Sequence record: NC_070967.1 | Strand: one strand, 5' to 3' | Length of the DNA stretch: 64,000 nt | Shown here: piece after piece, positions 48,401 to 48,818 of the stretch | Layout: every line of letters begins with the position of its first letter | Numbering within the stretch: position 1 is the stretch's first letter | The notes under the pieces: generated by a model | The model's database searches: none | What the model saw: the letters and a program-made list of their open reading frames with translations, nothing else | What the model was told of the DNA's origin: nothing | Program-made: the position numbers and the translations under genes

Positions 48401-48673
48401 ACGTGATCGTAACTTACGAATAGAGATAGCGTCTGAACGATCGAGATCTCTTTTATGCTTATAGATCTTCTCGTTCAGACGAGCTAGTTCATTGAAGTCA
48501 GATTGACTTAATCTACGATTAGTCTCAGCGTCGAATTTACGAAGATTATTCATCGTCATCTTAAATTCGACGAGTTCTTCTTCGACCTCAAGTCTCAGTT
48601 TTCTGAGTTCTTTATCTGAGATTTTAGATCCATTATCTCTGTCGGGATGAGATCCCTCGCGGGTCGTTACCAT
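45461..48673 (-). CDS. tape measure/hub protein with phage tail lysozyme and M15-type peptidase domains
   Basis: Helical N-terminal half; Gly/Ser linkers; ARGEIASMRGESG...GGTAQWH...FERP (tail lysozyme); VYSGG...TRHDHGGAAD...GIHMD (M15). Confidence 0.82.
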   Translation of the reverse strand: MVTTREGSHPDRDNGSKISDKELRKLRLEVEEELVEFKMTMNNLRKFDAETNRRLSQSDFNELARLNEKIYKHKRDLDRSDAISIRKLRSRVADLVKDAEASDLMVYVNVQDVINNYRALLSTKHYSSDIKKKAVRELNKVLSKSGVSGSYSIYDQDRSNQNLDAAIKKLEQQSKKISVMDLKRSSDLSLYSHRERINLDNRRVGSEKFKDAFLKNPGRFNPDDLIKDIYGVGFGSLGLHGIDDILGISDRLSGVTKVGLGKLRGRYSKKDYLNKFASVDKESSVADEKRQEDDSENLEDIKTGIQSLAKSNKTVIDQLKESEVTQTKMINNQMTQIRLEEKSISEISEAINRDNISDSLREKKASKGLLGMLAGIADGSGLNWKDALGIGGGAAGGGGLLGWLKGKGGSVGGIFKGSSSILGKVLGKAVPLIGAYTAYSLVDEIPTDPKELQKFIEKNSKSAEGLDKWILDNIGTPRSWLGLGQKSLEDSRKSESQLNREREKEREDLAKKIAKELNPRLNFNSGLPNYPGAGVSASGISYNPADGLPGLGGSSSTGSGGGGGSGRSRRSGRSAKTPQQIAAERQRANLFNSGFLGDGKGSFSNSNMPQSAGFSGSSGSNFKMLGASAQDLSKPGISGSGANDNVKSWYDFLTKPVSQGGLGRTPEQARGEIASMRGESGSGLNSAAYNANDVDGESGGTAQWHDSSRNGSTRFTDLKKFAASQGKDWTDVGVQQQYYRQEMLGSESRANAKIMSATTAAEAMSAHISGFERPQNPSGEIGKRSQYLNDTQASGKPNFNLLGASPGSGMSLMMPNFGPGQGSAGVDKIVSENQGQTAGIRKQGIEPDLKRNIARSVYKTLGPGYRVEVYSGGQNGKEEGGPRTGSTRHDHGGAADLKIIGPDGKQISQEEYARVSQGYIASGYGGVGMQMSGGGIHMDKHTDRAKFWNYNNEGGPIVSKESQRLIDQGLAGVNPEYKYTDAEADAYLNGPNFTPQGTDPRKVRTTVVPQMDMPNVNRIQPPTVAPNISQAPAAAAPASLQTAMNTSTAKDTKNSIDDLGISMFQQMFLG

Positions 48674-48818
48674 TCTTCATCTCCTCTTGGAGTCTCTCGT
48701 AGATGTAGGTAGCTTCCACATAGTCAAGGGATTTCAGACTCATAGGATCAGCGTTCAGGTAGAATGCCAAACCGAACGACATTTCTAACAGACTCTGCGG
48801 ATTGACGAAAGGGAAATA
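48633..48818 (-). CDS. tail assembly chaperone downstream domain (gp51/gpT-like), missing from the ORF track
   Basis: Frame open 48818-48633: YFPFVNPQSLLEMSFGLAFYLNADPMSLKSLDYVEATYIYERLQEEMK...; first ATG 48782 (49 aa); lies in the +1 frame of the upstream chaperone gene. Confidence 0.65.
   Translation of the reverse strand, partial: YFPFVNPQSLLEMSFGLAFYLNADPMSLKSLDYVEATYIYERLQEEMKNGNDPRGISSRQR

Follow-up and report, generated by a model that had tools for sequence, protein, structure and literature searches.

The 64,000-nucleotide stretch of sequence record NC_070967.1 analysed here (the window) carries, on its minus strand, a tail assembly chaperone gene that likely yields both a 261-residue protein (G) and a 299-residue extended form (GT) through a forward slip of the ribosome at UUU-CGU. 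Judged from comparative sequence evidence, +1 recoding that fuses this gp26-like chaperone to a short C-terminal domain (T) is highly probable, and we are similarly confident that the locus represents a sharply mapped +1 variant of the known short/long chaperone system. An earlier note on this DNA had proposed a +1 recoding event, and that reading is backed by conservation of the site in 29 of 32 relatives, by a switch of conservation from one frame to the other, and by the lack of a common start codon for T.

The minus strand at 48819-48805 reads ATA TTT CCC TTT CGT, in frame with an open reading frame at 49533-48748 (261 aa), and the +1 frame gives Y-F-P-F-V from 48818; F-P-F is thus encoded in both frames, as the earlier note had read. 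The +1 frame comprises 61 codons between the TGA at 48821-48819 and the TAA at 48635-48633, boundaries that were also given correctly, and the -1 frame of the window reaches a stop within a few codons of the site. The G protein sequence is identical in seven Rhizobium phages, such as RHph_TM39 (Kleczkowskaviridae, Cuauhnahuacvirus), where GenBank labels it a peptidase-domain protein. The +1 frame had been described as unannotated and as lying directly before the tape measure gene. GenBank does list it for RHph_TM39, as a 49-aa hypothetical protein beginning at the ATG that corresponds to 48782, so that the frame is misdescribed and not unannotated; it also runs 41 bases into the next gene, which begins at ATG 48673. 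The locus consists of one gene with two frames, and a separate T4-like paralogous pair is absent from it. Sequencing error was considered as the cause of this frame layout and rejected, as the same layout is present in the seven identical Rhizobium genomes and in eight unrelated lineages. The features of the locus are summarised in Table 1.

Table 1. Features of the chaperone locus, with positions in the window
Feature	Position	Strand	Basis
G (TAC-N), 261-aa tail (hub / tape measure) assembly chaperone of the T4 gp26 family, frame 0	48748..49533	-	PF12322, phrog_150, HHalign, model
Predicted +1 shift cassette: CCC (E site), TTT (P site, 48810-48808), CGT (A site)	48805..48813	-	Conservation; site roles by analogy with PA-X
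Extra TTT preceding the Pro codon; possible second slip option (TTT-C or CCC-T), product unchanged	48814..48816	-	3/32 relatives
TGA ending the +1 frame upstream, 3 codons 5' of the site; limits the position of the shift	48819..48821	-	Sequence
T (TAC-C), +1 frame, 58 codons counted from the re-paired Phe	48633..48809	-	Conservation, model
ATG of the GenBank annotation, T residue 10; weak Shine-Dalgarno; likely an internal Met	48780..48782	-	Annotation, Shine-Dalgarno, comparison
Next gene, 1070 aa, tail lysozyme domain; likely tape measure protein and putative client	45461..48673	-	Role from position and size
Two genes upstream: tail tube (50604-50077) and second tube-sized gene (50044-49559); tail sheath gene before them	49559..50604	-	Second gene without significant family match

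G matched PF12322 (E 9e-7) and phrog_150 (E 4e-8), and HHalign aligned its profile to the N-terminal region of T4 gp51 relatives (95% probability, E 4e-8). The model of G (pLDDT 83) matched T4-like hub assembly chaperones in BFVD, with E values down to 2e-10 for the named ones, and no match was obtained in the PDB at E up to 0.001. PF12322 is common to T4 gp26 and gp51, the latter having a C-terminal surplus of approximately 45 residues. These matches place G in the gp26 family. The G/T locus follows the genes for the sheath, the tube, and a second tube-sized protein, and precedes that for the 1070-aa tail protein; the order tail tube, G, tape measure matches the placement of G/GT-type chaperones, with the tape measure label taken from position and size. 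The gene between tube and chaperone (49559-50044, 161 aa) had no significant family match, and relatives call this slot second tail tube or baseplate tail-tube protein. In the partial genome of RHph_TM21B (L134, MN988560 138500-143200), the tail tube gene stands directly before a shortened tail protein, with neither the second tube-sized gene nor the chaperone between them, reflecting either an assembly gap or a deletion.

Among the 22 tblastn records obtained with G as query, 12 were examined, representing nine named lineages with 23-30% identity (Rhizobium, IME392/EP_H11, GR7B, GR11A, phiLo, Ab1, Va2, the Pseudomonas putida phages, and 1.031.O/150E35-1). In eight of the nine, the aligned place reads CCC or CCG followed by TTT CGT, and the +1 frame is open from there on; the remaining lineage, Va2, reads TTT CCC TAT, with TTT-C one codon earlier. 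A first pattern scan, whose pattern included the site itself, gave 22 homologs among 120 loci and served to define the T domain; these homologs were used in the T alignments and kept out of the conservation counts unless re-found by motif-free scans. The motif-free scans used a pattern from the later part of T only, with the site excluded, and are blind to lineages with a lost or changed T. In IMG/VR, 15 of the 19 loci retrieved with this T-only pattern were G homologs (the other four were unrelated), and CCN TTT CGT was present at the exact register in all 15. In the metagenomes, 15 of the 120 loci listed (from approximately 150 matches) were homologs by upstream G alone, the remaining 105 being non-homologs or too short to tell; 13 of these homologs had CCN-TTT-CGT, one had CCC-TTT-CGC, and one had TTT-CGA three codons later. 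The second frame was in +1 for all 30 motif-free homologs and in-frame or in -1 for none. IMG/VR and the metagenomes queried with G, GR7B G, or P0003 gave no relative, the DNA patterns finding relatives instead; alignments A1 and A3 contained no sufficiently conserved stretch, and protein database searches yielded only P0003 and P0004.

After removal of duplicates, 23 junctions were retained, which together with the nine named lineages made 32 distinct relatives. The Pro codon was present in all 32 junctions (CCC 25, CCG 4, CCA 3), with TTT after it in 30 and CGT next in 29, and an in-frame TTT-C was found inside the overlap in every one. The signal TTTCCCTTTC put forward in the earlier note therefore stood in its CCN-TTT-CGT part, kept at the aligned place in 29/32, and failed in its first TTT, found before the Pro codon in only 3/32. 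That note had named conservation in relatives as a check and loss of the slippery sequence in homologs as a sign against recoding; apart from the first TTT the site was retained in 29/32, and the +1 peptide was conserved. From codon usage, the chance of TTT followed by CGT was P ~1e-9 for the eight named lineages and ~1e-13 for 13 IMG/VR loci with lineages treated as independent, and these probabilities overstate independence because the relatives share ancestry. Just upstream of the site, a GGAGG precedes, by six bases, a +1 mini frame that reads ATG-ATT-TGA (window 48838-48819, minus strand). A G/A-rich stretch occurs approximately 18-24 bases upstream in many relatives, and may only reflect conserved Asp-Gly codons.

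The amino-acid conservation in these alignments passes from frame 0 to frame +1 at the site. Over the ten codons before it, the mean BLOSUM62 scores of 20 ungapped sequences were 1.20 in frame 0 and 0.01 in +1, and in the overlap after it they were 0.84, 1.35, and 0.96 in frame 0, +1, and the third frame, respectively. In the same sequences, the +1 frame had a stop within 10 codons upstream in 11/20 and none within 40 codons downstream in 20/20, and the -1 frame had a stop within 20 codons in 19/20. Among the 32 relatives, the +1 frame was closed 1-4 codons upstream of the site in 15, a count that, like the start-codon counts below, may be off by two rows (locus L267 and Va2) owing to register. 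By these comparative measures, the +1 frame is coding from the site onward.

The +1 frame could instead be a small gene in its own right, translated from ATG 48782 or by ribosomes that re-initiate after G, with no fusion. This ATG is present and annotated in GenBank, which calls a similar small ORF in GR11A, 1.031.O, and 150E35-1, and some possible start (ATG, GTG, or TTG) stands at or before T residue 7 in 25/32 relatives (15 ATG), at varying places. The annotated position, however, is ATG in 5/32 and something else in 27/32. Nine conserved residues precede it, and F1, V2, and residue 7 of T are conserved even though seven of the 32 (phiLo, Ab1, and five others, the window among them) have no start codon that early. 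The Shine-Dalgarno interaction of ATG 48782 is also weak, at -2.4 kcal/mol versus -5.8 for G and -7.2 for the next gene; the median of 53 window genes was -3.8, and 21% were as weak or weaker. In addition, a separate gene would leave the conservation of TTT-CGT unexplained. As no start codon is common to the relatives, a separate start for T does not fit these sequences, and we regard it as unlikely.

A fusion reached by another route, either a -2 slip or RNA polymerase slippage losing one base, is quite improbable. A -2 slip would lead to the same frame and is used by Mu in this type of gene (PMC3498833), but tRNA-Phe would need CNU pairing at the conserved site, which is impossible; the longest homopolymer there, 3-4 bases, speaks against polymerase slippage, and the shifty-stop variants of three relatives described below point to +1. 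Least of all do we credit the idea that the conserved bases act at the RNA or DNA level as a signal to the next gene, or encode a constrained P-F-R peptide, with the +1 frame untranslated. P-F-R is indeed nearly invariant in G, but its codons vary less than they could if only the peptide were constrained, conservation tracks the +1 frame downstream of the site, and the +1 peptide remains conserved for approximately 45 residues past the G stop. Searches for promoters, terminators, and tRNA genes in the window returned nothing above chance, and the predicted RNA fold of the 80 bases after the site was no better than that of shuffles (z -0.32).

Under +1 recoding, translation would usually terminate at 48748 and yield the 261-residue G. 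In a minority of ribosomes, tRNA-Phe would move forward by one base on UUU-C (48810-48807) and make GUC the first +1 codon, adding the 57-residue helical T domain to 242 residues of G and giving the 299-aa GT. The slip is most likely a P-site shift from UUU to UUC. By analogy with PA-X and bacterial +1 sites, CGU would be waiting in the A site, with the Pro codon in the E site, and the slip rate would probably be low, of the order of 1 to a few percent. If the products act as in lambda G/GT, G would serve as a coat on the tape measure protein and GT as its link to the tail tube protein, with the ratio of G to GT set by the slip. The earlier note had proposed as mechanism a double re-pairing across F-P-F. 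This proved incidental, and tandem re-pairing was rejected for the family: the extra TTT is present in 3/32, and CCG or CCA, the Pro codon in 7/32, cannot re-pair in +1. Because CCG and CCA are unable to re-pair one base on and the first TTT is rare, the single-tRNA shift from UUU to UUC is the slip open to all relatives. In the window phage, the extra upstream TTT may provide a second route, with the same protein either way.

In bacteria, UUU_Y is considered a slip-prone sequence in the +1 direction (PMC5009743). The search for a stimulator of the slip, covering downstream fold and rare codons, found none. CGT was common in the window, accounting for 280 of 844 Arg codons (codon usage was counted from the 53 window genes only), and in-frame TTT-CGT occurred four more times in ordinary window genes, in no case following a Pro codon.

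The conserved core of T corresponds to approximately its first 45 residues. Helices were predicted at 4-18, 22-26, and 30-47, giving a three-helix model (pLDDT 77), and F1, V2, L14, A15, D29, and E32 were kept in the alignment, some of them fixed by the search patterns used. No family in Pfam or PHROGs matched T, and its HMM did not match the +1 frames of the distant homologs in Carin-5 and YerA41 described below, nor the tails of T4 gp51 and PaBG gp72. Comparison of the T profile with the gp51 tail gave an HHalign probability of 0.8%, and an equal or higher score was obtained in 6 of 60 column shuffles. The best fold match of T had a non-significant E of 0.56; the named weak matches were a tail assembly chaperone (rank 13), a T4-like baseplate protein (rank 17), and a cyanophage gp51 (rank 20, E 2.3), and two tail assembly chaperones were included among the matches, all non-significant. 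The earlier description of the fusion as gp51-like thus held for the N-terminal domain, by the profile alignment of G given above, and gained no significant support for the +1 domain by the same method. Position, size, the three-helix model, and the weak fold matches faintly suggest a gp51-like status for T.

Frameshifted tail chaperones are textbook knowledge. The conserved shift of the lambda gpG/gpGT chaperones was described by Levin 1993 and by Xu, Hendrix and Duda 2004, as reviewed in PMC5009743. The window gene resembles lambda G/GT in having a second overlapping conserved frame with no conserved start of its own and a conserved slip site in the overlap, but the shift is +1, not -1, there is no X XXY YYZ heptamer, and the chaperone belongs to the T4 gp26 family. 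Published directions of chaperone shifts vary, with -2 for Mu (PMC3498833) and +1 for haloviruses (PMC7230728). T4 is listed as the exception in the 2016 review (PMC5009743), and its gp26 (208 aa) and gp51 (249 aa) are hub assembly chaperones according to PMC3004832. G is likewise a PF12322 member and aligns with the N-terminal part of gp51, which is a gp26-like protein with a tail of approximately 45 residues, the layout of the predicted GT; the difference is that T4 uses two genes and the window phage one gene with a predicted slip. Vladimirov, Gautam and Davidson 2022 (Virology 566:9) reportedly identified the tail assembly chaperones of T4-like phages, in several groups of which frameshifting is said to be kept. 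[quoted passage not shown]

Closer parallels in motif or direction come from more distant systems. In HF1-group haloviruses, a +1 shift was proposed at TTT-CGC in the tail chaperone gene (PMC7230728), and the shift of HSTV-2 is called 'very likely +1' (PMC5009743). They share with our case the myovirus tail chaperone, the +1 direction, a TTT-CGN motif, and prediction from conservation alone; they differ in having archaeal hosts with rare TTT and CGC instead of CGT, and the likeness is one of motif and gene type. The earlier note had cited UUU-CGU as a documented +1 context, and PMC3498833 gives UCC_UUU_CGU as the +1 site of influenza A PA-X, with a UUU_C P-site slip as the favoured model. PA-X and the phage family have in common UUU_C in the P site, CGU in the A site, and F-V across the junction. 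The E site holds UCC in PA-X and CCN (Pro) in the phage family, the ribosome here is bacterial, and CGU is rare in PA-X hosts whereas it is common in the window phage and, by the table of PMC3498833, in E. coli. In SPP1 gp17.1/17.1*, a +1 shift at CCC-UAA is reported (PMC6316719); this cue resembles the Tyr-Pro-stop ends of the three distant homologs described next, but the shift lies in a tail tube gene and CCC-UAA is not the signal of the window.

Homologs of G were also observed in Carin-5 (Cobetia phage, L135:10907-10925, E 2e-21), YerA41 (Yersinia ruckeri phage, L136:10853-10871, E 2e-15), and one further locus (L279:1336-1355, 58% identity). All three end in Tyr-Pro-stop (CCT-TGA, CCC-TAG, and CCC-TAA, respectively) and are followed by an open +1 frame of approximately 45 codons before the next gene, which is unannotated and mutually similar among them. 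These endings, seen in 3/3, likely represent a shifty-stop +1 version of the same fusion, to judge from the sequences. The words frameshift, chaperone, and slippery were absent from the main texts of the YerA41 and Carin-5 papers. In the Pseudomonas phage PaBG, genes 73 and 72 (L137:10084-11813) are tandem G paralogs between the tube and the long tail gene, and gp72, the second paralog, has an in-frame C-terminal tail as in the T4 26/51 arrangement. T4 gp51 and PaBG gp72 each combine a gp26-family domain with an in-frame tail of T-like length, beside a short paralog, and the two phages appear to obtain the same short/long pair from two paralogous genes.

More tentatively, and with somewhat more doubt than belief, we consider that CCN-UUU-CGU may be a compact PA-X-core +1 signal acting on bacterial ribosomes without a rare codon, stop codon, Shine-Dalgarno element, or RNA structure; that phages of Rhizobium, E. 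coli, Vibrio, Pseudomonas, Acinetobacter, and Thermus may all have kept it; and that the family may switch among a UUU-CGU slip, a Pro-stop slip, and two genes. No report of CCN-UUU-CGU in this phage group was found in the open-access texts searched, and Vladimirov 2022 may already cover +1 cases. The predicted fusion would correct annotation across a broad group of myoviruses, in which the chaperone is now called a peptidase, DNA methylase, or hypothetical protein, and T is missed or treated as a stand-alone gene. It would also give T4-type tail chaperones a +1 route, beside the -1 slips and two-gene coding found in print. PMC3498833 treats the reason for the CGU preference at PA-X-type sites as an open question. 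The cultured E. coli phages IME392 and EP_H11 carry the site, and because CGU is common here and E. coli phages have the site, the roles of the E, P, and A codons in a PA-X-type signal could be tested in bacteria. As +1 sites are those that frameshift predictors miss most (PMC10885494), a well-mapped motif would be usable for annotation.

Several further relatives were noted during the comparison. Proteins of phiRSL1 (Ralstonia phage, 384 aa) and Motura (Achromobacter phage, 438 aa) matched the G fold at ranks 5 and 7, respectively; both are much longer than G and may be naturally fused or tandem versions. Neither Motura nor Desulfovibrio phage 7757 had a chaperone homolog within 4 kb of the tube gene. 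The latter, whose record is without annotation, has a 583-codon frame (L158:6196-7945) with a prohead-protease-like start and an apparent long insert, whose motifs suggest an intein that carries a homing endonuclease. Acinetobacter phage Octan (MT409116) has a gp51 homolog for which the annotation already reads 'tape measure protein assembly chaperone'. In the Thermus phage phiLo, the chaperone (L004:874-1620) is labelled a DNA methylase and, at approximately 28 kb from the match to the tube gene, stands apart from the tail genes; it keeps CCG-TTT-CGT and a 66-codon +1 frame without an early start codon.
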